From IMG/VR virus record IMGVR_UViG_3300043754_000129, positions 160,001 through 224,000 of that record: a stretch of DNA of 64,000 bases; one strand, written 5' to 3'. The notes beneath the pieces were generated by a model, which saw only the letters and a program-made list of their open reading frames with translations, had not been told where the DNA came from and ran no database searches. The stretch comes from a virus (taxonomy: Duplodnaviria > Caudoviricetes). The stretch's first letter is position 1; each line of letters starts with the position of its first letter. Below, piece after piece: positions 2,416 to 47,149 of the stretch. The position numbers and the translations under genes are program-made.

Positions 2416-4944
2416 TTAGTTGGTGATGACAACGTGTTGGTTATACACCTTGGGGGTGGCGATGTTGCGCGCATCCAGTACACAGACCTGCGCATTCGTA
2501 AAGGCACCGTAGTGACTCTCGTAGTGCGAGATCATGTAAAGTTGCGTAAAGGGCTTGGTTTCCATTAGCGTCTTGATTGCCATGACCGCTGCGGTCCGGT
2601 GTTCCAAGTCCAGGGTCTTACCAAACTCGTCGAGCTTGAGCACGCCGTGTTCCAGATGCAGATACTTCAGGGACACAACCTTCCATGCCAGGTCAACGAT
2701 TTCCTGCATGCCGCTTGAGCCACGCGAGACGTCTGGCACGATGTTATCGCGGGTGCCGACCATCATCGGGAACTTGTAATCCAGCTCCGCTCCCTTTTCA
2801 TTGGCGACGCCACACGGCTGCACTTCCAGTTTGTACGCCCAGATCTTGCGAATGAGTTGGTTCATCTCCATCGTGAAATGGCGAATGAAACCGAACATGC
2901 CTTCCGCGATCAATCCATCCTTGGGCGACAGGGCCTTCAGCGTAGCCTTGAGGGCTTGCTCTTCTTTCTGACGCGCCGCAATCGTCGTCTTCAAATGCTC
3001 AACGATCGCCTTTTGCTGGCGCAGTTGACTGAGCGTCTCTTCCTTACGAGCCAGAGAGCTCTGCACGTGCTGGATACACTGTTGGATCATCTGCAAACGC
3101 ATGGTTTCCACCACGTCGTTTGTGAGCATATCAAGACGCTCGATGTATTCCTTTACTCGTGCCTCCAAGCTGATCGCCGTTTCCAGTTGCTTGCGATACA
3201 CGTAGAACTCATTCAAGTCCTTACGGGCATTCGTGAGCGCCTTGGTCATCTGCTCGATCTCAACGGTGCAGTAGTTCAGCTTCTCCACTGCGTCGTTGAT
3301 GTTCTGGTCCCCGAGTTGCTCTGACTGAGCCAAGAGCTTCTTGAGGTCCTCGATCTCTGCATCGCCGATCTTCGCTTTCACCTCACAGCCCAGATCGTGT
3401 TCAAAGACCTGGAGGGCGGAAAGAATGGAACGCGGCGCTTCGACAACGGCGTTGCGATCCGTGATGTGATCCCAGAACGCAAAGAGAGAAGGCGTGGCCC
3501 GAGTGATCTGGATGAACTGACGGAAAAGCGCACCGTAGCTTTCCTGCTCGGCAATCTTGGCTTCCACTGCCTTCAGGTTCGCTTCCTGCGTTGCGATCTC
3601 TTGCTCGGCCTGCTTGATGAAGTTCTTGAGCGCTTCGTACTGCTGGTCGCTCAAGCCCATGTGGAACTTGTGGTTACACTTGGGGCAGGTGACAGAGCCG
3701 TTCTCCCGGTGTTCGTCGGCGTGTTGCTTGCGTGCTTGGGCCTGAGCCAAATCCCGCGTCTTCTGCTGGATGAGTTCTCGCACCTTCTGGTGATTAGCCT
3801 TGAGCTCTTGCAAGACCGCTGAACCAAAGTACTTGCTTTCGTTGCTCGGGAGTTCTGACAGCACAGCCGTCAAGTCGTGACGAATCGACTCGACCGTGCG
3901 AAGCGCATCCGTCGGATCAGCACTCACCAGTTCCAGCTTCAGCCGGCGTTCCTTCAGATGGTTCAGGCGCGTCTCAGCAGTCGCCGCAATCTTCTTGCGC
4001 ACCGACTCGATCCCGTCTGCCCCTTGCTTCTTCAGGATGTCCACGGTCTCTTTCAACTTCCCATGGTCGCCCACCATCTTCGCAAGCACTGCCTCTTGCG
4101 CCGTGATGTGTTCCTTGATGTCTTCGATGTAGTTCTGCACATCGTCAATCGAGTTAAACGTCACGTGTTGCAGCTGACCCCAGTCATCGCGATAGAGGTG
4201 CGCCGGCGACTCGATCTTCATGTGCAACAGTTGCTCAGAGATCGACTTCAGTTGCGTTTCTGTGCGTTCCCGTTCCGACTGCACTTCTTGCAACGGCCGC
4301 TTAATGGGAGCGCGCATCTCGAAGAGGCTCGAGAGTTCCGTATGCAGTTGCTTGACTTCAGCGATGAGGATGTGCTGCTCTTCTTCCGTGATGATCTTGT
4401 TCTGCTCAATCACCAGCGAACGCTTATCCAGATCGAGCGCCCCCACGACACTGCGATGCTCTTTGCTGAGCTTATCGAATACACTGATCGCGTAGTCAAA
4501 GGAGACGTCGTTGAGCAGCGTGAACCATTCGCGGCGCGCGCCCGGTCCCAGATCCGTCAGTCGCACGAGCCCCAGTTCCAGCTCATGGATGTCCGGCGTG
4601 ATACCGAAGTGCTGACGCACCAGTTCCTTTTGCACCGCAGCCGTGCCACCCGGGTTCAGTTCCTCGCCGTCCTTCTGGAAGCTATGGATCTGCTTGCGGG
4701 AGAAGTCGCTGGTCAAAATGTAGGTAAAACCGCGATCAACAATATGAATCTCTTTGCAGCCGTCTTTGAGGTAATCGGCCGGATTCGCAGGTAGGGGCGT
4801 CAACTCCTGCAACAAGGAGGACTTCCCGCTACCGTTGGTGCCCAGAACCATCTGAATCTGTTCTGTGGGCCGAATTTCAAAGCGCAACACTTGGTTCAAT
4901 GCGAACCGCTTAAAGCCTTTCAAAATCAGGGCAGTGTAGCGCAT
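2416..4944 (-). CDS. sbcC: SbcC/Rad50-like SMC ATPase (phiKZ gp165-like)
   Basis: Walker A GTNGSGKS, long coiled coil with central zinc hook CPKC, signature SSGMQ, Walker B LKLDEFGKTLD, H-loop ISH. Confidence 0.9.
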   Translation of the reverse strand: MRYTALILKGFKRFALNQVLRFEIRPTEQIQMVLGTNGSGKSSLLQELTPLPANPADYLKDGCKEIHIVDRGFTYILTSDFSRKQIHSFQKDGEELNPGGTAAVQKELVRQHFGITPDIHELELGLVRLTDLGPGARREWFTLLNDVSFDYAISVFDKLSKEHRSVVGALDLDKRSLVIEQNKIITEEEQHILIAEVKQLHTELSSLFEMRAPIKRPLQEVQSERERTETQLKSISEQLLHMKIESPAHLYRDDWGQLQHVTFNSIDDVQNYIEDIKEHITAQEAVLAKMVGDHGKLKETVDILKKQGADGIESVRKKIAATAETRLNHLKERRLKLELVSADPTDALRTVESIRHDLTAVLSELPSNESKYFGSAVLQELKANHQKVRELIQQKTRDLAQAQARKQHADEHRENGSVTCPKCNHKFHMGLSDQQYEALKNFIKQAEQEIATQEANLKAVEAKIAEQESYGALFRQFIQITRATPSLFAFWDHITDRNAVVEAPRSILSALQVFEHDLGCEVKAKIGDAEIEDLKKLLAQSEQLGDQNINDAVEKLNYCTVEIEQMTKALTNARKDLNEFYVYRKQLETAISLEARVKEYIERLDMLTNDVVETMRLQMIQQCIQHVQSSLARKEETLSQLRQQKAIVEHLKTTIAARQKEEQALKATLKALSPKDGLIAEGMFGFIRHFTMEMNQLIRKIWAYKLEVQPCGVANEKGAELDYKFPMMVGTRDNIVPDVSRGSSGMQEIVDLAWKVVSLKYLHLEHGVLKLDEFGKTLDLEHRTAAVMAIKTLMETKPFTQLYMISHYESHYGAFTNAQVCVLDARNIATPKVYNQHVVITN

Positions 4945-33318: not shown

Positions 33319-35541
33319 TTACGGCAGCTGCGTCACCGTGTCGAACTCGACCGGCACCTTGCTGTACGCAATGGCGCTGATACCCGACACGTTGATCACA
33401 CCCAGAACCGGCAGGTTGCAGATGTGCAGGAACGACGGCTGGACCGTGAGTTCCTTCGACTGTGCGCCGTTGCGGATCATCGGCAGGACGACCGTGACTT
33501 CCGGCTTCCATGCCATGTTACCGAAGTGCAGCGGGTTCGGCGTGCCAGCCTTCGCGCTCGATTCGTCGCCGAAGGACATGACGATCTTGCCAGCCATGCG
33601 CTCGTTCAGCGTCGACACGATCTTGACGTCGAACTGACCGCCCAGCGTGCGAAGGTCGCCCGTCACCATCAGGTAACGTGCGATGTACGGATCCGTACCG
33701 ATGATGACCGTCGGCACCGGGCCAACGCCACCAGCGAGCGCATCCGAGGCTGCCTTGTAGCCCGACTGGACGTACAGCGTGTACGCGATGTCGCGCAGGC
33801 AGTTGACCAGCGTCGCCTGGATGTCGGCCGCGCGTTGATGCGCGCTCAGCGAGTCCGTCGACGAGTCGATCTCGAGGTTCTTCTCGATGTAAGCCGGCTG
33901 AACGATGAAGCGCGAGACGCCCAGGATTTCCGGCGTATCGGCAGCGCTGTTCGGCGTGGCCGTCGTGTTCAGGGCGCTGGTCGTTTCAGCGAGCAGGTCC
34001 TGAATGCGGAGCAGTTCGTCCACGGCTGCGTTCGACGTGCGGATGCGCGTTGCCGTGATGAGTGCTGCCAGATCCGACGAGTCGTTCGCGTCGCCGACTT
34101 GCATCGGACGCGGGATCGTGATCGGGGCCAGGAGCGGCACCGTGTAGATCTGGTTGTAGAAGTTCGTGTTCAGCAGCTGACCACGTTGACGACGGTTCGA
34201 GTTCGTGCGACGAGCGTCGAGGTCGTAACCGATAACGGTCGCGCCCGTGAAGATCGCTGCCAGCGTTGCACCCGTGCCCGAGCCGAGACCCAGAGCGACG
34301 TCGCTCGAGTTCTTGATCGAGGTCAGGCCGACCGACGACGTGTTGATTTCCGTGTCGCCGAGTTCGAGGTTCACCGAACCGAACATCGAGAAGCCGAAGC
34401 GTGCTTCGTAGTTGCCCGAGACCAGCGGTGCGAGCAGTTGCGATGCGCCGCCGTCAGCCAGCGTCGTGTTCGCGTTGATCAGCAGCGTTTCCGTCTTGAA
34501 CTGGAGGTTCATCTGACGGTAGACGTTCTGCGGAGCGTAGTTGAACACAGCCAGCGGCAGCTGACGCGTGTTGAACTTCACGACTTCGGTCGTCGGCGTG
34601 CCGCCAACCGTGCCCGTGAACTGCACGTACACTGCGTCGAGCGCGAGTTGCGTGTCGATCGCGTCGGTGATGTCGAGGATACCCGTTTCGAGCAGGGCTT
34701 CCGTCTGCGACAGACCGAGCAGCGAGAACTTCTGGCCGACTGCGAGCGGCGCCGTCGTGATCTGCGTGTTGTCCGTCAGCTGCACTGCGTACGGCGCGAC
34801 TTGCGCGTTCGTGACGAAGTAGCCTTCGCTTTCCGTGCGGTAGACCGGGACGATCTTCGTCTGGTCGTTGCGCAGGATGGTCGGGTCGATCACCGCTTGC
34901 ACGATGTTGCGACGGCCGAAGTTCTGCGACGGAGCACCCGAGATCGGACGCTTCGGTTCGTTGTACACTTCGATCAGGCGGATCGAGACCGTGTAGCCGA
35001 CTTGGTCGGGGGTCACGACGACGGTCGGGAAGAACGCTTCACCGAACTCGTCTTGGCGCGCAGCTTGAAGGTTGTACGCGACCGAGTACACGACCGCGTT
35101 CTTGTTTTCCTTCTCGTCGTACGCTTCCAGCGCCGGCTTGATACGATCGAACATGCGATCTTCGCCGCCCGGCACGATGAACTTCATCGACTCGGTCGAA
35201 ACCTGGTCGTGCTTGATGCCCGCGTGCAGGAAGCCAGCCATGTCGCCCGTGAGCGCCATCGCAGCCAGACCAGCGTTGCGCTGCGCGGCCGTCAGGTCGT
35301 GCATGCCGTGTTCTTTCAGGATGCTCTCGAGCGAAGCGTTCAGGCCTTCGAGGCTGTCGTTCAGTTCGCGCGTGAGCGACGAATCGATCGCTTCCATCGA
35401 GATGGCGGCTTGCGAGATTTGACGCGACGCGAATGCAGCGCCGCTGTGGTTCATTTCTTGGCGCAGGGCGCCCACCAGGGTGTCGACCGGCGAAGCGACC
35501 GAAGTGCCGATGCGACCCTTGTTTGCAAACAGAGCGGTCAT
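33319..35541 (-). CDS. major capsid protein (phiKZ gp120-like)
   Basis: 740 aa; YNLQAARQDEFGEAFFPTVVV, RTSNAAVDELL, VIIGTDPYIARYL, HFGNMAWKPE, QPSFLHICNLPV; very strong codon bias; N-terminal SME/SLE/ALE maturation motifs. Confidence 0.9.
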   Translation of the reverse strand: MTALFANKGRIGTSVASPVDTLVGALRQEMNHSGAAFASRQISQAAISMEAIDSSLTRELNDSLEGLNASLESILKEHGMHDLTAAQRNAGLAAMALTGDMAGFLHAGIKHDQVSTESMKFIVPGGEDRMFDRIKPALEAYDEKENKNAVVYSVAYNLQAARQDEFGEAFFPTVVVTPDQVGYTVSIRLIEVYNEPKRPISGAPSQNFGRRNIVQAVIDPTILRNDQTKIVPVYRTESEGYFVTNAQVAPYAVQLTDNTQITTAPLAVGQKFSLLGLSQTEALLETGILDITDAIDTQLALDAVYVQFTGTVGGTPTTEVVKFNTRQLPLAVFNYAPQNVYRQMNLQFKTETLLINANTTLADGGASQLLAPLVSGNYEARFGFSMFGSVNLELGDTEINTSSVGLTSIKNSSDVALGLGSGTGATLAAIFTGATVIGYDLDARRTNSNRRQRGQLLNTNFYNQIYTVPLLAPITIPRPMQVGDANDSSDLAALITATRIRTSNAAVDELLRIQDLLAETTSALNTTATPNSAADTPEILGVSRFIVQPAYIEKNLEIDSSTDSLSAHQRAADIQATLVNCLRDIAYTLYVQSGYKAASDALAGGVGPVPTVIIGTDPYIARYLMVTGDLRTLGGQFDVKIVSTLNERMAGKIVMSFGDESSAKAGTPNPLHFGNMAWKPEVTVVLPMIRNGAQSKELTVQPSFLHICNLPVLGVINVSGISAIAYSKVPVEFDTVTQLP

Positions 35542-37866: not shown

Positions 37867-38001
37867 TTATGTGAACAGTAGTACTCGTTCATGGAATCGA
37901 CTCCAGGCCGCCCTGCAATCCCTGGGGTGGCTTGGGTCGGTTCCGTTGTTATGCCGGGTACTGAACTGGTGCAATATTTATTCCACCGTGGAAGACAAAA
38001 A

Positions 38002-39120
38002 ATGGACGACATCGAAATCCTGAATCAGCCAGCCGATCAGCATCCAGACCATCTGGAGATCGAGCACTACATCCTCGACCACAACACGATCTGTGACAGC
38101 GTGAGCATGCTCGACGAGATCCGTGAACACCTGATCGGTCTGCAAGGCCTGAACGTCGCGATGGAAGGCATCGCACTCGAAAGCCTGGGGGAGACCCTCA
38201 AGGCGTACTGGCAACAGTTCCTGGCCTTCCTGAAGAAGATCTGGGAAAAGATCGTCGCGTTCTTCGAAGCGCACTTCACGGTGCTCGGTCGTCGACGTCT
38301 GCACATCAAGCGCATGATGACGAAGGTCAAGTCGCTCAGCACGAACCCGGAAGTCTACCGCAAGCTCAAGGACTCGCACAAAGACATCGTGATCGCCCAC
38401 GCCAACGTGCAAGCCTTCATGATCGGCGGCAAGGCCATCACGGGCGCTGAAGAGCTCCTGGGTGCCCTCACGCGCACACGCGCCGCTGTCACGGTGGTGA
38501 CTGATGACTACGCGAAGTACATCGTCGATCAGCGGATCGTGAAGATCAGCAAGACGCTCGAAGCCGCGACGGTGGAAAACGCAGCTGGCCTCTACGAGCG
38601 CATCGTCCAGGAAATGGAGCACAATGCGTTCCACGTCGGTCAGCAAGAGATGCTGGGCAACGTGAGCGTGACGTACGGTGGCGGTGGCAGCGATCTGGAC
38701 GCGCACCGTCTGGTGCTCGCGGAAAAGCAAGTCGGTCACCAAGACATCCTCTTCACGCCCATGACGATCGAGGACCTCGCCAAGGTCTACGCGAACATGG
38801 AAGGCGTGCTCGACGAGATGGACAACTTCAAGAACGGCGAGTACAAGCAACTCGTCTCGGCCGCTCAAGGCATGATGCGCCTCACGGACACGATGGTCAA
38901 GAAGTTGAGCACCGGTGCTCAAGACGGTAGCGCCGAAGCCGTCAAGCAGCTTCTGGGCCTGAACAAACACTACGTGAACTGGATCAAGGCACCGATGACT
39001 GATCTGGTGCGCCACATCACGACGAGCTTCTTCTACATCGGCCACGAGATGGAAGAGAACATCTCGTTGTATGAGCAGCACGAAGCGCTCAATTTCTTCA
39101 AAGTCATCGGCATGTGCTAA
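38002..39120 (+). CDS. internal head protein-like (acidic propeptide, AME/ALE sites)
   Basis: VAMEGIALESLGETLKAYWQQFLAFLKKIWEKIVAFF is the typical post-cleavage amphipathic helix of phiKZ-family head paralogues. Confidence 0.7.
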   Translation: MDDIEILNQPADQHPDHLEIEHYILDHNTICDSVSMLDEIREHLIGLQGLNVAMEGIALESLGETLKAYWQQFLAFLKKIWEKIVAFFEAHFTVLGRRRLHIKRMMTKVKSLSTNPEVYRKLKDSHKDIVIAHANVQAFMIGGKAITGAEELLGALTRTRAAVTVVTDDYAKYIVDQRIVKISKTLEAATVENAAGLYERIVQEMEHNAFHVGQQEMLGNVSVTYGGGGSDLDAHRLVLAEKQVGHQDILFTPMTIEDLAKVYANMEGVLDEMDNFKNGEYKQLVSAAQGMMRLTDTMVKKLSTGAQDGSAEAVKQLLGLNKHYVNWIKAPMTDLVRHITTSFFYIGHEMEENISLYEQHEALNFFKVIGMC

Positions 39121-39134
39121 GTGAGCAGACAATC

Positions 39135-40208
39135 ATGAAAAGCTTTGTTTCACAACTCTGGTCGCTCGGCCTCGAACCGAACCTCCGTCCCGCGCTCGAA
39201 GCGGAAATGATCAACAAGCGTCACGTCGAGTTGCTCCTCACTGACGACCCCGTGCTCGCGGGCATGGGTGGTGCCTGTGTGTTCGTCTTTGCGCGCCCCA
39301 TGCTGGAGAAGGCCAAAGACTTCCTGCGGGCTGTCGAGGGCGGCTACGTGGACGCAACGACCACGAACAACCCATCGCTCCTGCCGGAGATCAAGAAGGT
39401 CGTCGAGTACCCGCCTGATGTGTACCTCGCGCTCTTTAGCTCGAAGCTGAAGGCGTCGATGTCGCAAGGTGAATTCGACGCCGTGGTGCAGCACGAGTAC
39501 GGTCACGTCAATCACCGCCACCTCGAACAGCAACGATGGGGCGGCTACCACGAATTTATCACGCACGAGAAGGAAGCCGACAACTACGCGGTGACCGCTG
39601 GTGGCGCGAAGGTCGAGGACATGATCACGGGTCTGGAGAAGGCCATGCACTTCGGTGCCGAGCAAGCCGTGCTCTGGCAACAGGGTGCGTCGAACTCGTT
39701 CATTCGCAAGCTGCTCGATAGCGACATCATCGATGCGGCCACGGTGAAGTTCGCCGTCCGTCAAGCACGCATGATGCACGGCGCGCGTTTCACGACGCTC
39801 AAGAAGCTGAAGGCGCAGCGCGATGCTGGCAAGGCCGAGACGCCGATCGTGTCGTCGGGTAAGAACGTGCCGGATAACACGCTCGCCAAGCACAAGCTCC
39901 AGATGTCGAAGATCCATGGGGACTCGCCGGAACGCCAGGCTGAGATCCAGGAAGAGATCGACGCGCTGAACCGTGGCGAGACGCCGACCACCCACATCAA
40001 GAAGCCGACGCCGGCTCCGGCGCCGACGCAGAAAGGTGCGGACATGAACGGTCGCCTCGATCGGTTCCAGGAACGGATGAATAAGCTGGGTCGCAGCGTC
40101 GGGGGCGGTGAAGGTAGTTCGGACACCGAAACCCTCAAGGATCGCATGCGTGCGCAAAGCGACGCGACGCAGGAGCGCCTGAACAAGCTGAACAAGCAAG
40201 ACGCGTAA
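39135..40208 (+). CDS. putative Zn metallopeptidase (M48-like HExxH) with low-complexity C-terminus
   Basis: AVVQHEYGH followed by EKEADNYA; N-terminal PALE motif. Confidence 0.6.
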   Translation: MKSFVSQLWSLGLEPNLRPALEAEMINKRHVELLLTDDPVLAGMGGACVFVFARPMLEKAKDFLRAVEGGYVDATTTNNPSLLPEIKKVVEYPPDVYLALFSSKLKASMSQGEFDAVVQHEYGHVNHRHLEQQRWGGYHEFITHEKEADNYAVTAGGAKVEDMITGLEKAMHFGAEQAVLWQQGASNSFIRKLLDSDIIDAATVKFAVRQARMMHGARFTTLKKLKAQRDAGKAETPIVSSGKNVPDNTLAKHKLQMSKIHGDSPERQAEIQEEIDALNRGETPTTHIKKPTPAPAPTQKGADMNGRLDRFQERMNKLGRSVGGGEGSSDTETLKDRMRAQSDATQERLNKLNKQDA

Positions 40209-40275: not shown

Positions 40276-42393
40276 ATGTTTGCGGCGTTGCGTCGAGTCC
40301 TCGGTCTGATCGAGGTCCAGGAAAGCGGGGATCTTATCCGCATTACTGGCTTACCCGGCGATAGCGTAATGAAGACGATCTACGAGGTGTGGGGAACCAG
40401 TAAGATCGCGGAGAACTTGTTCTCCAGAATTACGCCGTCGGAAGTATCATTCAATCGTTTTTTTGCCGTGGACGTCGTCTATGCTTTCACGCGCATCATC
40501 AACGAAAAGCGCAAGGGTGCCCCGATCCGCGCGCTCAAGAAGATCGTGGCGCTCATGTACGAGCACACGTGGCTCAAAGACACGCTCGTACGGCATCCCG
40601 ACATCCTGGATCGCCAACAGCTGAACCAACTGAAGTGGGGTCCGCTGGAACACCAGGACGGCTTCTTCGATTGGTTTAACGAGATGATCCCACGCTTCAA
40701 ATTGCGTGGGGCACTCCTCGGTGCAGGTCCGGGCACGGGCAAGACCTTCATGGGTCTGTCGCTCTCCCTGATGCTGCACGCGGATGTGACCATCATCGTC
40801 TGTCCGCCACGGGCTGTGAAGAAGGTCTGGGAAGACACGATCGTCGAGCAGTTCAAGCGTCCGGTGGGTTACTGGCACTCCCAGATGGGTACGGCCATTC
40901 CCCGGGGCAAGAAGTACTACATCATCCACTACGACTTCCTGCCGAAGTTCATGGAGTTCGTCCGCCAGAACCACTGGAGCAAACCAGTGATCCTGTTGGA
41001 TGAGTCGCACGGGATGAATGAAATGGAAGCGTTGCGTACGCAGCTCTTTATTGAGCTCTGTAACGTCACGCGCTGTCAGTATGTACTGTGGGAGTCGGGC
41101 ACGCCTGTGAAGGCCATAGGCGGCGAAATGGCGCCTCTGTTCCGTACGATCGATCCGATGTTCGATGAAGACGCGCAAATGCGCTTCAAGGCGATCTACG
41201 GCAAGAACACGAGTCGCGCCAATGACGTGCTTGCGCACCGTCTCGGCAAGGTCACCTACAAGGTTGACTCCAACAGCGTGGTGGATGTGAAGGTCACGCA
41301 CCACAAGGTCAAGGTGGTGATCCCGAACGCGAAGGACTACACACTGACCGCCATTCGCGCTGAGATGAAAGCCTTCATCCAGGAACGGGTGGAGCATTAC
41401 CAGTCCAACATGCGGATGTACGAGCGCATGTATGACCAGGCGATCTATCAGTTTGAACGCACGCTGATTACGCCTGAGCAGAAGGACAACTTCAAGACGT
41501 ACATGCGGTACATGAAACAGATCCGCCGGGGCTATGACCCGAAGATGCATCAGGAGATGGCCGTCTGGTGCAACAAGTACGAACAGAAGATCATCATGCC
41601 AGCGCTGCCTAAGCAGCTGCGCGATAACCTCAAGCAATCGAAGTCGGTGGTCAAGTACTACAAACTGAAGGTGCAAGGGGAAGCGTTGGGCAACGTGCTG
41701 GGCCGCAAGCGTGGCCAGTGTATTGCCGACATGGTGCCGCACATGGGGCTGGAGAACATCATCGATAGCGCCTTGAAGAAGACGCTCATCTTTACCAGCT
41801 ATGTGGGTGCAGTGGATGCAGCAGGGGATTACCTGAAGGCGCGCGGCTATCATCCGTTGCGGGTCTATGGGGAAACCAACAACGAACTCGCTGGCATGGT
41901 GAACGAGTTTAAGAATTCGGAAGACGCCAACCCGATGATTGCGACCTATCAGTCGCTCTCGTCCGCGGTCCCGCTCGTGATGGCGAATGTGGAGATCATG
42001 ATGAACTCCCCGTTCCGCTCGTTTGAATACGACCAGGCCGTCGCTCGGGTGAAGCGTCTGGGGCAGGATGAAGACGTCGACATCTACGACGTGGTGTTGG
42101 ATACGGGCAACGAGGTGAACATCTCGAGCCGCACGATCGACATCATGAACTGGAGTCGTGAGCAGGTCAATGAGATCATGGGCTTTGAGAATTCGCCGCT
42201 GGTGGGTGCGATCTCGCGTGAGAGCTACATGACCATGGACCCGGAACTGAACACGGCCGGCGAAACCCCGATGGACCTGAGCCCGATCCTCTTGCAAGAG
42301 TTCTCGGACAACATGGTGCTGAACGGCTACGCCATGGAAGGCTTCCACGTCGAGGAAGAACCGATGTGGGCACAATGGGCCACGTTGCCATAA
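40276..42393 (+). CDS. SF2 (SNF2/DEAD-like) helicase
   Basis: GAGPGTGKT, IVCP, LLDESH, SGTP, C-terminal QAVARVKRLGQ. Confidence 0.85.
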   Translation: MFAALRRVLGLIEVQESGDLIRITGLPGDSVMKTIYEVWGTSKIAENLFSRITPSEVSFNRFFAVDVVYAFTRIINEKRKGAPIRALKKIVALMYEHTWLKDTLVRHPDILDRQQLNQLKWGPLEHQDGFFDWFNEMIPRFKLRGALLGAGPGTGKTFMGLSLSLMLHADVTIIVCPPRAVKKVWEDTIVEQFKRPVGYWHSQMGTAIPRGKKYYIIHYDFLPKFMEFVRQNHWSKPVILLDESHGMNEMEALRTQLFIELCNVTRCQYVLWESGTPVKAIGGEMAPLFRTIDPMFDEDAQMRFKAIYGKNTSRANDVLAHRLGKVTYKVDSNSVVDVKVTHHKVKVVIPNAKDYTLTAIRAEMKAFIQERVEHYQSNMRMYERMYDQAIYQFERTLITPEQKDNFKTYMRYMKQIRRGYDPKMHQEMAVWCNKYEQKIIMPALPKQLRDNLKQSKSVVKYYKLKVQGEALGNVLGRKRGQCIADMVPHMGLENIIDSALKKTLIFTSYVGAVDAAGDYLKARGYHPLRVYGETNNELAGMVNEFKNSEDANPMIATYQSLSSAVPLVMANVEIMMNSPFRSFEYDQAVARVKRLGQDEDVDIYDVVLDTGNEVNISSRTIDIMNWSREQVNEIMGFENSPLVGAISRESYMTMDPELNTAGETPMDLSPILLQEFSDNMVLNGYAMEGFHVEEEPMWAQWATLP

Positions 42394-42467: not shown

Positions 42468-44912
42468 ATGGACCTGAATACCCTCATCCATAAGGCGGCG
42501 TTTGGTGACCGCGGCCTCACGCTCGAGAACCTGGACGACTCCCTGCCCGAAGGTGGGGATTCGGAGCTGGGCAGCTACGCTGACAGCGCTGATGCATGGG
42601 CGGACTACGGCAATGCGATGAATGTCGCCGCTGAAGCCATCCGTGACTACAGCATCCAGCTCGAAGGTCTGATCGAGCGCAAGGAACTGAACGCGGTCAC
42701 GCTCGGCCTCATCCGTGACGCCGCGCAACGCTGCGCGACGACCGTCGGCTACGAAATCAATCTGCCGTCGATGGAAAGCGTCGAGACGCAATCGATCGAA
42801 GAACAGGGCGCGGTGGCGCTCGAAGGTTTCCGTCAGGTGATCTTCAATCTGTTCCAAGATTACGTGCTGCACTTCAAGCACCACAAGGACGTGATCGGCG
42901 ACTTCTTCCGCTCGACCTCGGGCATTCTCAACAAGTACGAGAAGAAGACGCTCCAGAACAAGGCCGAGTACAACTCGAAGAAGAACAAGATCGGCAATCA
43001 GGAAATCGCCGTGGCCTTCGTCGGCCTCGACTACTTCCTGTCGAACACGAAGGCGATGAAGGAATACCGCTTCAGCGACTTCATGGGCCTGCTGCGTCAA
43101 GATCGCCAGATGTCGAACTTCGCGCTCAAGGAATACCCGAAGCGCGTGCTCGCCGAAATCGATGCACTCGCGAAGCTGCTGCGCGGCTCGAGCCTGAAGA
43201 CCGACGCGGACGTGCAAAAGCTCGCGAAGGCTGTCGAGCAACTGAAGTCGCCCTCGGAACTGTTCGACGAGCACCTCCTGGACGTGGAGGGCTTCGGCTC
43301 GTCCAAGTTTGTCGCTGTCAAGCGCGGCGGCAAGAATCGTCTGGACGTGCTCGCGGCCGCCAAGCCGGTCACGCTGTCCAAGCCCATCGGTGCTACGGTC
43401 GGTAACGCCATCATGGCGGGTGTGCAGTCGTTCGGTGGTCGCGTGGTGGCGTCGGCTCTGCCGGTGGTGGGTGCCACGACGGGCGGTATGGCTCACGCGG
43501 TTGCTGCGCCGGTCATGGCTGCTCGCGCCATCTACGAAGGCGTGGGCGACGACAAGGGCAAGATCATGCTCAACGGCAGCGACATCGGTCGCGTGCTGGA
43601 AGCCGCGGAAGGCTACATCAACGACGTGCGTTACTTCCTGTCGACTGAGCGTGAAGTGGCGCGCATGATCGACGAGATGGAAGGCGCGGTCAAGGCTGCG
43701 GAAGCCAAGGGTCAAGCCGACGCGAAGGCCGAAGACGCAGGCGAACACGCCATGGGTTCGGTGCATCTGTACGAGAAGATCCTCGCGGTCTCGCGCGTGC
43801 TGATGCGTGCCGTGCAAACGCCGGCACAGCAAGAAGTCGCTCGTGCGCTGAAGGCCAGCAAGTACCTGAACTACCTGGCCCTGCGCGCCATCTTCAATGC
43901 GAAGAACCACGCCATGGAAGGCATGGACAATCCGGAATCGGGCGCGTTCGCACGCGGCGAAGGCGACGCCAACCTGCACAAGGAAAGCACGCCGGCAGTC
44001 AACCCGGGCCTGGCAGCGCAAGCCAAGCAGATCAATGGCGACAAGCCGATCAACACGGACGACCTCGATGCCCCGATGCATGCAGCAACGGAAGGCAAGA
44101 AGGACGAAGCCACGGACATGGTGCATGGTGCAGCGGTCGACCCGAGCAAGTCGACGTGCGACATCGAAGGCCACGCCGTGGATCCGACGAAGACGGGCGA
44201 AACGCCGGAAATCGAAGGCGCGGAACTGAAGCCGGCCAAGGAAGCCTACACCGAAGTTGAAGAAGGCGCCGTGGGCGAACATCACGCTGCGATCATCGAC
44301 AAGATCTACGACAAAGCCGAAGTGATTCCGAGCGAAGGCATTCGCATTCACATCGTGCACGACGTGTGTCAAATCGAGGCCGAGTTCGACAAGAAGATCA
44401 AGGCACATCCGGAACAACGCGAAGCTCTCCTGAAGGAAGCGGGCGAACGTCTGGACGCTGTCCTCGAGCGCGTAGACGCCACGTTCGAACATCACGGCTG
44501 GGATGTCGACGGCAAGAAGGTCGCTCTCGAAGGCCTGATGGAAACCGCCAAGTCGAAGAAGGCGAAGTTCAAGGGCGCCAACGATGAAGAAATCGCGGCA
44601 CTCGAGAAGGCCATCGGCTTCAAGCTTCCGGTCGCGTACCGCAAGTACCTGAAGGACTTCGGCTACATTGCTTGCGGCGGCAATGAAGTTTACGGCGCAG
44701 CGCGCGGTCACCTGAGCGCGGTCGAGATGTACGAAGACCTGAGCCGTAGCGATACGTTCCCGAAGCAAGCCATCCCCCTGATGGAAATCGGTGACGGCCA
44801 CTACTACATCCTGAACGCTGGCAAGGTGGTCGAATGGGCCAACGGCGGGATCGTCAAGAGCGGCAGCATGAGCTTCACCGACTTCCTCGAGAAGAAGGTG
44901 TTCGAAGATTAA
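42468..44912 (+). CDS. internal head protein-like fused to a C-terminal SMI1/KNR4 (SUKH) domain
   Basis: SME/ALE/AME motifs; C-terminal GANDEEIAALEKAIGFKLPVAYRKYLKDFG..IPLMEIGDGHYY..SFTDFLE. Confidence 0.75.
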   Translation: MDLNTLIHKAAFGDRGLTLENLDDSLPEGGDSELGSYADSADAWADYGNAMNVAAEAIRDYSIQLEGLIERKELNAVTLGLIRDAAQRCATTVGYEINLPSMESVETQSIEEQGAVALEGFRQVIFNLFQDYVLHFKHHKDVIGDFFRSTSGILNKYEKKTLQNKAEYNSKKNKIGNQEIAVAFVGLDYFLSNTKAMKEYRFSDFMGLLRQDRQMSNFALKEYPKRVLAEIDALAKLLRGSSLKTDADVQKLAKAVEQLKSPSELFDEHLLDVEGFGSSKFVAVKRGGKNRLDVLAAAKPVTLSKPIGATVGNAIMAGVQSFGGRVVASALPVVGATTGGMAHAVAAPVMAARAIYEGVGDDKGKIMLNGSDIGRVLEAAEGYINDVRYFLSTEREVARMIDEMEGAVKAAEAKGQADAKAEDAGEHAMGSVHLYEKILAVSRVLMRAVQTPAQQEVARALKASKYLNYLALRAIFNAKNHAMEGMDNPESGAFARGEGDANLHKESTPAVNPGLAAQAKQINGDKPINTDDLDAPMHAATEGKKDEATDMVHGAAVDPSKSTCDIEGHAVDPTKTGETPEIEGAELKPAKEAYTEVEEGAVGEHHAAIIDKIYDKAEVIPSEGIRIHIVHDVCQIEAEFDKKIKAHPEQREALLKEAGERLDAVLERVDATFEHHGWDVDGKKVALEGLMETAKSKKAKFKGANDEEIAALEKAIGFKLPVAYRKYLKDFGYIACGGNEVYGAARGHLSAVEMYEDLSRSDTFPKQAIPLMEIGDGHYYILNAGKVVEWANGGIVKSGSMSFTDFLEKKVFED

Positions 44913-44933
44913 GCTAGAAGTTTCTAGTTGACC

Positions 44934-44960
44934 GGAGGGGCTTCGGCCCCTCCTTTATTT
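44934..44960 (+). terminator. intrinsic terminator after the SUKH-fusion gene
   Basis: GGAGGGGC-TTCG-GCCCCTCC then TTTATTTT. Confidence 0.75.
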
Positions 44961-44977
44961 TGCTAGGTGACAAGGAA

Positions 44978-47149
44978 ATGGATTACACGGTACGACGCGC
45001 CGAGGTCGACCTGATTGCACTGGAGGGGCATCTTGCCTCGCTGGATGCAGTACGCGCACAACTCGAAACGCGCAATATCACCCAGGGTCTCGCACTCGAA
45101 TGCGATGCTCTCATGCACGCCAACCGGGGTCAAGGTTCCCTGTTGGCACTGGCCTATGACCGTAGCGCTACGAGCAAAGACTACCAAGTCGCACTCGAAG
45201 GCGTGATCAATACGGTCTGGGAAACGATCAAGCTCGTGGTCCGCAAGATCATCGAGTACGTCAAGAAATTCTGGTTGTGGATCACGGGCAAGAGCAACAC
45301 CGTCACGCCGGAGAAAGCGGAAGCGGCTGAACAGGCGGCCAGCGGCTTCGAGAAAGCATTCCGCGACTGGCTGGAGCAGCTGCCCCATGTTGAGGTCGAC
45401 TTGCAGTTCACCAAGGACGGCAAGACGACTACCTTCACCAACAAGAAGGATGGGGGTGCAACGGATCCGGAAGTCGAGCGTCTGAACAAGCAAGCGGAAG
45501 CTTCGCATGCGGAAGCCGATCGGCTGCGCAGTCAGATTCCGGAGATTCAGCGCCGCGGTGACGAAGCGGTCAAGCTGGTGAAGGAGCATGGTCCCGAGAA
45601 AGCTGCACAGATGATCCGCGATGGTCATCTCGTGAATGAGCTGAAGGATCACGTGAGTGAAGCCGCGAAGGATGCAGAGCACACGCAGAATTTGACGGAC
45701 AAGCTCAAGCAGCCTCACGAGGCCATCAAGCCGCTCGATCCCTCCAGCATTAAGGTTACGCGCCGGGAAGGCGCCACCGATCCGAAGACCCAGTTCCATG
45801 TCAATCAGGTCAATGAAACGGCCGCCCGCGTTCGCGAGCAGAATGACAAAGTGAACGAGATGCTGGATGGTCATCCCAGCAAGACGTTCGATCTGGACGC
45901 TGGGACTGTGCGCGGCCAAGGTGGTCCGGTTACGGATGCACTGAATGCCCGCAAGCCCAAGATCGGTCAGACCAGTGCCAAACTGGATCCGGAAAAGCAC
46001 AAGGCAGAATCTTCGGCCCATGCCCAGCAGATTCAGTCGCAGATCGACGACGAACAGGGTCTCCTCGATGCCGCTAACGAGCGTCTGTCGGATACCCGCC
46101 GCCGCAAGCAGAACGGTCAGCCGATGCACTCGATGTATGGTGGCGGCAACGACCATGACCACTGGATCGGCAGCGACGAAGACTTCGTCAAGAAGTCCCA
46201 AGCCAAGATCGACGGTCTGCGTGCCAAGCTCGGCAAGCCGGCAACCGAAAGCATTGCCACGGAAGACGCGGGCATCGGTCATCTGAAGCCTGTCGATGCA
46301 CTGAACGCCACGGCTGAAAGCATGAAGAGTCAGTTCCTCTCGGGTCTGCCGCGTCCCGAGGCATTGATTCTCTTCTCGCAAAGCTACGGCAGCAACTTGG
46401 AACAGCTCGCTCGTGAGTTCTCTCACTTGAAGCCGATCGAGGCGCTCGCGCGTCGCTACGAGCAGCTCAATGAACTGTTGCCCAAGTTCATCGCCGAAGC
46501 CGCTCAGATTGACACCATCAAGGATGCGTCGGAGCGTCAGCAGCGGATCGCGGACTTCCAGCACCGCGTCGAGAAGACCCTCGAGAGCGCCCTGGATCGT
46601 GAGGGTGGCAAGACGGATGACGCCGATCAACTGGCCAGCGATATCAAGCGCTTCCAGGCAGCCCGGGAGAGCCATGGTACCGGTGACTTCGAGATCGACA
46701 CGCCGGCCACGGGTGATCGGCTCATGCACGTGGCAGCCATCACGGATACGACCTTCCGTACGGTGCGTGCGGTGATCGCAGAAGTGCAGTCGGCAGCTAC
46801 GGAACTCAAGACGCTGGAGACGGCGCTCGAAGGGTTGAGCAGCAAGATCGTAGCGATCTCGGCAGGTAGCAGCGCATCGGCCACCGACTACGTGGCGCAT
46901 GCGCTCAACAGTGAAGTGCGGTTCGTGTCCATGCGTGTGCGCACCATCACGCAAGGCATGGCGGTCTTCACCAACTATTACACGGACGCACATCGCGCGG
47001 TCTCGCGTTATCAGAAGTTTGTGATCAAGGTCGTGGATACCGCACTCAAGCAGATGAATGGTGAGCACGAGTTCCAGGAAGATCGCGTTCGCAGTGCGCT
47101 TGCACACATGCGAGATGCATCGCGCTCGTTTGATCGCTTGGCTGCTTAA
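44978..47149 (+). CDS. internal head protein-like, coiled-coil rich
   Basis: IALEG, VALEGVINTVWETIKLVVRKIIEYVKKFWLW helix, ATE motifs. Confidence 0.7.
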   Translation: MDYTVRRAEVDLIALEGHLASLDAVRAQLETRNITQGLALECDALMHANRGQGSLLALAYDRSATSKDYQVALEGVINTVWETIKLVVRKIIEYVKKFWLWITGKSNTVTPEKAEAAEQAASGFEKAFRDWLEQLPHVEVDLQFTKDGKTTTFTNKKDGGATDPEVERLNKQAEASHAEADRLRSQIPEIQRRGDEAVKLVKEHGPEKAAQMIRDGHLVNELKDHVSEAAKDAEHTQNLTDKLKQPHEAIKPLDPSSIKVTRREGATDPKTQFHVNQVNETAARVREQNDKVNEMLDGHPSKTFDLDAGTVRGQGGPVTDALNARKPKIGQTSAKLDPEKHKAESSAHAQQIQSQIDDEQGLLDAANERLSDTRRRKQNGQPMHSMYGGGNDHDHWIGSDEDFVKKSQAKIDGLRAKLGKPATESIATEDAGIGHLKPVDALNATAESMKSQFLSGLPRPEALILFSQSYGSNLEQLAREFSHLKPIEALARRYEQLNELLPKFIAEAAQIDTIKDASERQQRIADFQHRVEKTLESALDREGGKTDDADQLASDIKRFQAARESHGTGDFEIDTPATGDRLMHVAAITDTTFRTVRAVIAEVQSAATELKTLETALEGLSSKIVAISAGSSASATDYVAHALNSEVRFVSMRVRTITQGMAVFTNYYTDAHRAVSRYQKFVIKVVDTALKQMNGEHEFQEDRVRSALAHMRDASRSFDRLAA

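Follow-up and report, generated by a model that had tools for sequence, protein, structure and literature searches.

Why should a protein that resembles an occupant of a phage head end in a domain of the kind that bacteria pair with toxins? The question is raised by P0001, an uninterrupted open reading frame (ORF) of 814 residues at 42468..44912 (+ strand) of the 64,000-nucleotide stretch of DNA analyzed here (the window). The window comprises positions 160001-224000 of the 323,678-bp virus record IMGVR_UViG_3300043754_000129 (genome G000), from a phage that is known from metagenomes only. The answer that we favor, with moderate confidence, is that P0001 is an internal head protein (IP) of the phiKZ type, an inner-body or ejection protein, that serves as the vehicle for a SUKH nuclease inhibitor. 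The observations behind this answer are the identities of its domains, a head-protease gene in the same genome, conservation of the cleavage-site motifs, the exchangeability of the C-terminal cargo among orthologues, the recurrence of SUKH on other IP scaffolds, and purifying selection on the fusion.

The gene, an IP scaffold with a C-terminal SUKH cargo, is read from one strand throughout. It opens with an acidic propeptide-like region (residues 1-119, 42468..42824; isoelectric point (pI) 4.06) that ends in the motifs S-M-E↓S (42768-42776), S-I-E and V-A-L-E↓G (residues 116-120, 42813-42824; the arrow marks the predicted cut). A basic, helix-rich IP core follows (residues 120-484, 42825..43919; pI 9.35) and closes with the A-M-E (nt 43911-43919) of an A-M-E↓G motif (residues 482-485) at the junction with an acidic linker (residues 485-600, 43920..44267; pI 4.39) that is predicted to be disordered. 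Beyond the linker lie an orphan element (residues 601-684, 44268..44519; pI 5.29 for residues 601-688) that is modeled as three helices, the sequence V-A-L-E (residues 685-688, 44520..44531), a predicted prohead-protease site with G689 at P1', and the SUKH (SMI1/KNR4) domain itself (residues 689-814, 44532..44909; pI 6.18), which would be a protein of 126 residues and 13.9 kDa if released. An initial annotation, made from the sequence alone, had placed the ORF at these coordinates, and it does translate to 814 residues without a stop; S-M-E (101-103), S-I-E (109-111), A-M-E (482-484) and VALE at nt 44520-44531 are all found where that annotation put them. Its order of propeptide, AME, acidic linker, VALE and SUKH also holds, with the addition of the 84-residue three-helix element ahead of VALE, which it had missed.

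The full-length AlphaFold2 model of P0001 (11 sequences) is of low confidence, with a predicted local distance difference test score (pLDDT) of 52.8 and long helices in the core; it was used solely as a map of order and disorder, on which residues 482-606 score 23-33. In the model of residues 600-814 described below, the helices of the orphan element occupy model residues 2-19, 24-47 and 49-77 at pLDDT 82-96. A profile search of 1.84 billion representatives returned no homologue of this element, an Atlas search with residues 598-688 gave generic helical hairpins only, and a word-based search for long proteins sharing residues 600-814 returned P0001 alone. The linker contains further x-x-E↓G sites (for example A-T-E↓G at 540-543), as well as stretches (A-V-D-P-S-K and T-P-x-x-E-G) that are also present in orthologues, and seems to be more than a mere spacer.

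Profile matches and fold both identify the C-terminal domain as a genuine SUKH domain. Pfam SUKH_5 (PF14567) matches residues 692-809 with an expect value (E) of 2.8e-17 and 63.3 bits (cut-off 27), and SUKH_6 (44.9 bits) and SMI1_KNR4 (PF09346; 44 bits) also exceed their cut-offs on the C-terminus. Residues 600-814 were modeled with AlphaFold2 from 50 aligned SUKH sequences, at a mean pLDDT of 92.9 and a predicted template-modeling score (pTM) of 0.81; the top Foldseek matches of this model in the PDB are Bacillus subtilis YobK (2prv; E 1.7e-6), 2icg, 2pag (TM-score 0.83, normalized by target), the SMI1/KNR4 protein 3d5p, yeast Knr4 and FBXO3. Pfam, AlphaFold2 and Foldseek thus agree with the SUKH call of the initial annotation. 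SUKH domains are toxin binders (PMC3113570, PMC3482391) whose specificity varies widely (PMC3482391). This one is the sole SUKH domain in the phage genome. GenBank phage records hold no relatives of the SUKH part at E ≤ 0.01; comparison of the gene, the protein, the SUKH part and P0019 (a SUKH protein discussed below) with 50,697 such records, as DNA and as protein, gave no matches, the phage's own record perhaps not being included among them. Two founding papers on SUKH make no mention of phage SUKH proteins (PMC3113570, PMC3482391), and the literature searched held no paper linking SUKH or SMI1/KNR4 to jumbo phages or virions.

Assignment of the N-terminal part of P0001 to the phiKZ_IP-type family is supported by family-level sequence comparison. 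Ten homologues (487-884 residues) are 49-68% identical to P0001 over the first ~485 residues; at E ≤ 0.01 (6e-7 at best), 8 of the family's 11 members match PF12699, P0001 matches phrog_5750 'internal head protein' at E 4.5e-5, and an hhalign comparison with IP paralogues from the phage itself reaches E 0.006-0.008. In the profile comparison P-A-M-E-S of P0001 aligns with T-P-A-M-E-S and V-A-M-E-G of those paralogues, and M102, E103, S104, A117, E119 and G120 are invariant across the 11 members. P0001 has both a propeptide-like region that ends in S/A-X-E sites and, at low model confidence, a helix-rich mature part, and its 119 propeptide residues are comparable in length to the propeptides of SPN3US head proteins, which are 111-254 residues long (PMC10052503). 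The IP-type beginning that the initial annotation had read from the motifs is thereby supported. The P0001-family profile has no match in phiKZ, and scans of IMG/VR and of metagenomes for further family members yielded only 1 and 2 loci. In phiKZ the gp203 helicase is followed, at the place that corresponds to P0001, by gp201, which has no homology to P0001 or to the gene downstream of P0001.

A domain joined to a scaffold in one contig might be an artefact of assembly or of gene calling, and P0001's protein cluster is on record from a single contig. That explanation is very improbable here. A 17.3-kb soil-metagenome contig from a different study (strain X2) covers 43700-45100 with 98.4% identity and 0 indels, fragments from a third study match the region at 100%, conserved genes lie on either flank of P0001, and its frame is uninterrupted and, of those that overlap, scores best as coding sequence under a genome-trained codon-usage model (the DNA has 57% G+C). 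Within the ORF, P0001 and X2 differ at 20 positions, 19 of them synonymous and one non-synonymous (A646T), which gives a ratio of non-synonymous to synonymous change (dN/dS) of ~0.015 over the C-terminal 340 residues. The linker (485-600) has accumulated 7 synonymous and 0 non-synonymous changes, and V685, A686 and G689 are each encoded by different synonymous codons in the two strains. The P0001 fusion is genuine and under purifying selection. The base composition of the gene is the genome average, so the SUKH part is no raw recent insertion. None of the sequencing runs listed as containing the sequence is of RNA.

A protein of this kind would need a protease, and the genome supplies one. It is the genome of a phiKZ-like jumbo phage because it encodes a major capsid protein homologous to phiKZ gp120 (33319..35541, - strand; PF25620, E 4e-190), three PF12699 internal-head-protein genes apart from P0001, an orthologue of the phiKZ gp203 helicase and a homologue of the gp175-type head maturation protease. 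The IP paralogue in the window (409 residues; 37891..39120, + strand; PF12699, E 5.4e-21) carries V-A-M-E↓G at residues 89-93. The protease homologue, whose existence the initial annotation had presupposed, lies at G000 124483-125241 (- strand) and is 40% identical to gp175 (E 4.3e-38), itself a member of phrog_3014; its neighbors correspond in position and length to phiKZ gp176, gp177 and the virion RNA polymerase subunit gp178. The phiKZ protease cleaves after S/A/G-x-E (PMC9026906), and that of SPN3US after A-x-E with V at P4 (PMC10052503). The published cut in the phiKZ capsid protein falls between Glu163 and Asn164 (PMC11297242); because the capsid protein of the present phage has A-L-E↓A in alignment with this gp120 cut, G-L-E163↓N, the preference for S/A/G-x-E has probably been kept.

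The loose motif [SAG]-x-E is uninformative, arising by chance about once per 35 residues; longer motifs are more telling. V-A-L-E↓G at residues 685-689 repeats the exact pentapeptide of the propeptide site at 116-120. Over the 305 predicted proteins of the phage VALEG is observed 3 times (expected 0.2), twice in P0001 and once at residue 77 of the next gene; ALEG is observed 11 times (expected 2.8), on four occasions at residues 20-26 of its protein; AMEG is observed 4 times (expected 0.9), three of them in IP-type proteins; and A-x-E-G is observed 52 times (expected 31). VALEG is thus 15 times over-represented, and VALEG, ALEG and AMEG are concentrated in IP-type proteins. In the confident model the second VALE↓G of P0001 sits in the loop that links the helical element to the first helix of SUKH, with V at P4 and A at P3 it agrees with the logo of the SPN3US protease (PMC10052503), and the N-termini (initiator Met) of stand-alone SUKH proteins align with A686: a cut here would give the natural limits of a SUKH domain. 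As an aside, A-L-E-G stands at residues 20-26 in three proteins encoded at G000 2755-3204 (-), 73382-74242 (-) and 106362-107279 (+). Its placement, which resembles that in the short propeptides of SPN3US gp45 and gp225, suggests that these have short capsid-targeting propeptides and are candidate packaged proteins.

What the scaffold carries is exchangeable. The family alignment is conserved through ...N-A-K-x-x-A-M-E-G and divergent beyond it. At the junction of core and extension, all nine members that have an extension show A-x-E↓(G/S), with G in eight and S in P0008; three relatives (P0009, P0010 and a more distant 448-residue protein, L012) stop just short of the junction site. A Cys/His-rich module is found in three family members, and a repeated insert is found in P0004 and four others, those four also having a second module. 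Helical element plus SUKH is found within the family in P0001 only. P0008, encoded on a 320-kb contig (L005) with the same gene order (capsid protein, DnaB-like helicase, IP, small gene, SNF2 helicase, P0008, downstream gene), is the positional orthologue of P0001, and carries other modules in place of SUKH. Whether orthologues bear variable C-terminal cargo had been marked in the initial annotation as something to check; they do, down to the three relatives with none at all. The other cargo modules (P0002-P0008 and P0011; alignment A1, columns ~520-948) belong to no Pfam family; they include a ~100-residue Cys/His-rich type, a second Cys/His-rich type and a ~60-residue repeat starting Q-E-N-I-R-K-M-D, and are frequently bounded by (A/T)-T-E↓G or A-T-E↓S.

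SUKH, for its part, is not confined to this scaffold. Residues 600-814, used as the query of an exhaustive profile search, gave matches to 89 proteins, every one of them through the SUKH part. Among these, P0013 (926 residues; L007 8001-10781) combines phiKZ_IP, SUKH and Hva1_TUDOR, P0050 (602 residues) combines phiKZ_IP and SUKH, P0070 and P0072 have phiKZ_IP and a C-terminal SUKH, and P0019 (792 residues) has a C-terminal SUKH and adjoins a phiKZ_IP gene; the scaffolds of all five are without similarity to that of P0001. On its 295-kb contig, P0013 comes fourth in an array of IP genes that lies behind a gp91 homologue. With V-S-A-E↓S before SUKH and S-M-E↓A before Tudor, it is a two-cargo version. 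Scaffold homologues of P0070 and P0067 occur in cultured Pseudomonas, Burkholderia and Ralstonia jumbo phages, the matches ending before SUKH. The initial annotation had the P0001 fusion right and missed this recurrence on unrelated IP scaffolds. In a maximum-likelihood tree of SUKH domains P0001 pairs with P0013 (support 95/67) within a group (86/82) that takes in five IP fusions and all four of the proteins paired with LHH nucleases that are described next; the IP-SUKH fusions are not monophyletic and deep support is weak, and the tree is silent on one versus several origins.

Genomic neighbors were looked up for the seven nearest stand-alone SUKH relatives of P0001. Four of them (P0012, P0014, P0018 and P0023; 34-41% identical to the P0001 SUKH domain) lie immediately downstream of an LHH domain (PF14411, of the HNH/EndoVII type) that is matched at E 1e-23 to 1e-28; the neighbor of P0021 is incomplete, and those of P0017 and P0020 have no Pfam match. 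The locus L021 3272-4402 (CP181058.1) presents a clean pair of LHH toxin and SUKH immunity genes behind a DUF87 ATPase gene and adjoining several transposase genes on a 185-kb replicon. The pairing with a toxin gene is not seen beside P0001, which is flanked by a helicase and a conserved head-type gene; the phage genome holds no LHH nuclease at E ≤ 1, and a pattern scan of IMG/VR for LHH nucleases, of limited sensitivity, found none. Because its relatives pair with LHH and the phage has neither LHH nor a second SUKH, the best-supported class of target for P0001 would be an LHH/HNH-type nuclease that the phage does not make, as judged from sequence relationships. The initial annotation's idea of an immunity-type cargo stands as far as SUKH goes; it had overlooked that the domain belongs to an LHH-paired subgroup.

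These facts allow a route to be sketched. The acidic propeptide and the basic helical core would bring P0001 into the prohead, where the gp175-type protease would remove the propeptide at (A/S)-M-E↓S and V-A-L-E↓G; the C-terminal extension would be cut from the core at A-M-E↓G, and a cut at the second V-A-L-E↓G would free the 126-residue SUKH protein. The cargo would then leave the capsid with the DNA and, ahead of any phage gene expression, bind and block a nuclease. An LHH (HNH/EndoVII) enzyme is the likeliest candidate, whether an effector of host defence or a toxin that the cell already contains. Several considerations weigh against this route. The packaging, each of the cleavages, the ejection and the target of P0001 are predictions, and P0001 alone scores below the PF12699 cut-off (15.8 bits against 27; E 1e-3). 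Enrichment of [SAG]-x-E before SUKH, which was also considered, is not significant: a site is there in 7 of 8 fusions, with 0.6-1.3 expected per 35 residues. In SPN3US, 13 of the 14 cuts that have been mapped take off N-terminal propeptides (PMC10052503), which makes release of a C-terminal cargo by an internal cut the less common pattern. The pTM of the 600-814 model suggests that the helical element may pack on SUKH and could shield the site. Because the material that phiKZ ejects enters a membrane-bound early infection vesicle (PMC13282480), the cargo may never reach targets in the cytoplasm. Finally, the 34-41% identity to the LHH-paired relatives has to be set beside the shifting specificity of SUKH domains (PMC3482391).

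The nearest competitor keeps the packaging and the ejection and dispenses with the last cut: SUKH would do its work while still attached to the helical element, to the linker or to the entire IP, and the second VALE↓G would not be used. The same pTM suggests a fixed arrangement of helical element and SUKH, the cuts mapped in SPN3US are for the most part N-terminal (PMC10052503), purifying selection acts on the linker as though it had its own function, and P0019 lacks a canonical site before its SUKH domain; set against these are the exact VALEG of the invariant propeptide site, repeated in a loop at the natural N-terminus of the domain, its 15-fold over-representation, and its retention through three synonymous changes within the codons of the site. 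We judge tethering to be rather unlikely. That a released SUKH protein should act on a nuclease met in the host is one way of using a toxin binder; that it should hold a toxin-like enzyme of the phage's own making, silencing a co-packaged nuclease until ejection or serving as the adaptor that imports into the head a partner without a capsid-targeting sequence, is another. Toxin binding by SUKH domains (PMC3113570, PMC3482391) would suit either of these roles, phage heads are known or predicted to carry toxins, for example polymorphic toxins fused to MuF (PMC3482391), and the functions of the other cargo modules of the orthologues are not known. We nevertheless consider such a partnership improbable in a genome from which LHH nucleases are missing at E ≤ 1, in which no toxin-like gene adjoins and the helicase and head-type neighbors occur with or without SUKH, and when the IMG/VR scan, within its limited sensitivity, also turned up no LHH relatives.

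SUKH could, lastly, be a passenger, with a structural or assembly role or none at all, as in a harmless fortuitous fusion: close orthologues manage without it, and no target is known. A passenger of this sort would hardly be expected to show the dN/dS measured across the C-terminal 340 residues, to have counterparts in four other phiKZ_IP-plus-SUKH proteins on unrelated scaffolds (and in P0019, next to its phiKZ_IP gene), or to match the genome in composition, and this explanation too has little probability. The preferred reading of P0001, as a vehicle from which an inhibitor is released, can be extended, more tentatively and with real doubt, to phiKZ-like IPs at large: they might form a modular delivery platform, a conserved scaffold bringing exchangeable C-terminal cassettes into the capsid for release by the head protease at A-x-E↓G, of which the SUKH cassette would inhibit LHH/HNH effectors at time zero.

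The proposed route for P0001 would follow the logic of T4 IPI*, which is targeted by a propeptide, trimmed by a protease after Glu, ejected with the DNA, and inhibits a host nuclease before phage expression (PMC9026906). The two differ in build: T4 IPI is small and single-domain, with a targeting peptide of 10-19 residues, whereas P0001 bears its SUKH domain at the C-terminus of a ~485-residue scaffold and would need an internal cut. Precursors that are divided have a parallel in phiKZ gp93 and gp162, each cut into capsid-retained pieces with separate roles (PMC11297242). The phiKZ inner-body proteins are of the same PF12699-like, helix-rich type and are cut at S/A-X-E by the same protease family (PMC11297242, PMC9026906); none of these IPs is reported to have a recognizable immunity or enzyme domain, unlike P0001. 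Bacterial SUKH/LHH immunity pairs (with YobK as structural reference) share domain family and fold with P0001 and have the toxin adjacent, whereas the P0001 SUKH domain is fused instead to a putative virion protein of a lytic-type jumbo phage. Delivery of conflict-related cargo from inside the capsid is also represented by MuF-fused toxins and by the Dar proteins of phage P1 (PMC3482391, PMC12810830), but the MuF fusions, of temperate phages, bear toxins and not immunity domains, and the Dar proteins are unrelated to P0001 in sequence and shield DNA from restriction by other means. A packaged, IP-borne SUKH cargo is not described in the literature searched and would be a new version of the IPI*-like packaged, protease-processed anti-defence protein.

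The interest of such a cargo is that the majority of the proteins inside jumbo-phage heads have no known function; a 2026 review of jumbo phages likewise has packaged proteins mostly without one. A recurrent, exchangeable SUKH cargo offers a testable function, injected counter-defence, together with a candidate class of target in the LHH/HNH nucleases. Were the wider platform reading true, part of the enigmatic set of inner-body proteins would for the first time have a concrete function, and immunity proteins of bacterial toxin systems would have been re-used as injected phage counter-defence. The SUKH cargo would also extend the reach of polymorphic-toxin immunity domains to the virions of lytic phages. 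IP scaffolds could also be put to use for loading chosen proteins into jumbo-phage capsids, as with T4 IPIII fusions (PMC9026906).

The genes around P0001 remain to be described. PADLOC finds nothing for P0001 or its neighbors beyond a faint peptidase_U41 match (E 0.0075) to a 364-residue gene at 39114-40208 (+ strand), between the IP paralogue and the helicase, which also has a faint Pfam match to Peptidase_M48 (E 0.009); its counterpart in contig L005 has 276 residues. Directly downstream of P0001, a 729-residue ORF at 44960..47149 (+ strand) has no Pfam, PHROG or PADLOC match and is 47% identical to the gene in the same position in L005; judged by that orthologue, translation probably begins at codon 7 of the ORF. 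The gene is likely to encode another processed head protein, its motifs including I-A-L-E↓G (residue 20), V-A-L-E↓G (residue 77) and T-A-L-E↓G (residue 622). Directly upstream, the SNF2-type helicase (40276..42393, + strand; Pfam and PHROG matches) is the orthologue of phiKZ gp203 (35% identity, E 4e-138, to phiKZ 210794-212761), which is annotated as a structural protein in the phiKZ record; its Y-A-M-E↓G at residues 686-690 (window 42331-42345), 16 residues from the C-terminus, is where the head protease could trim the end of the helicase.

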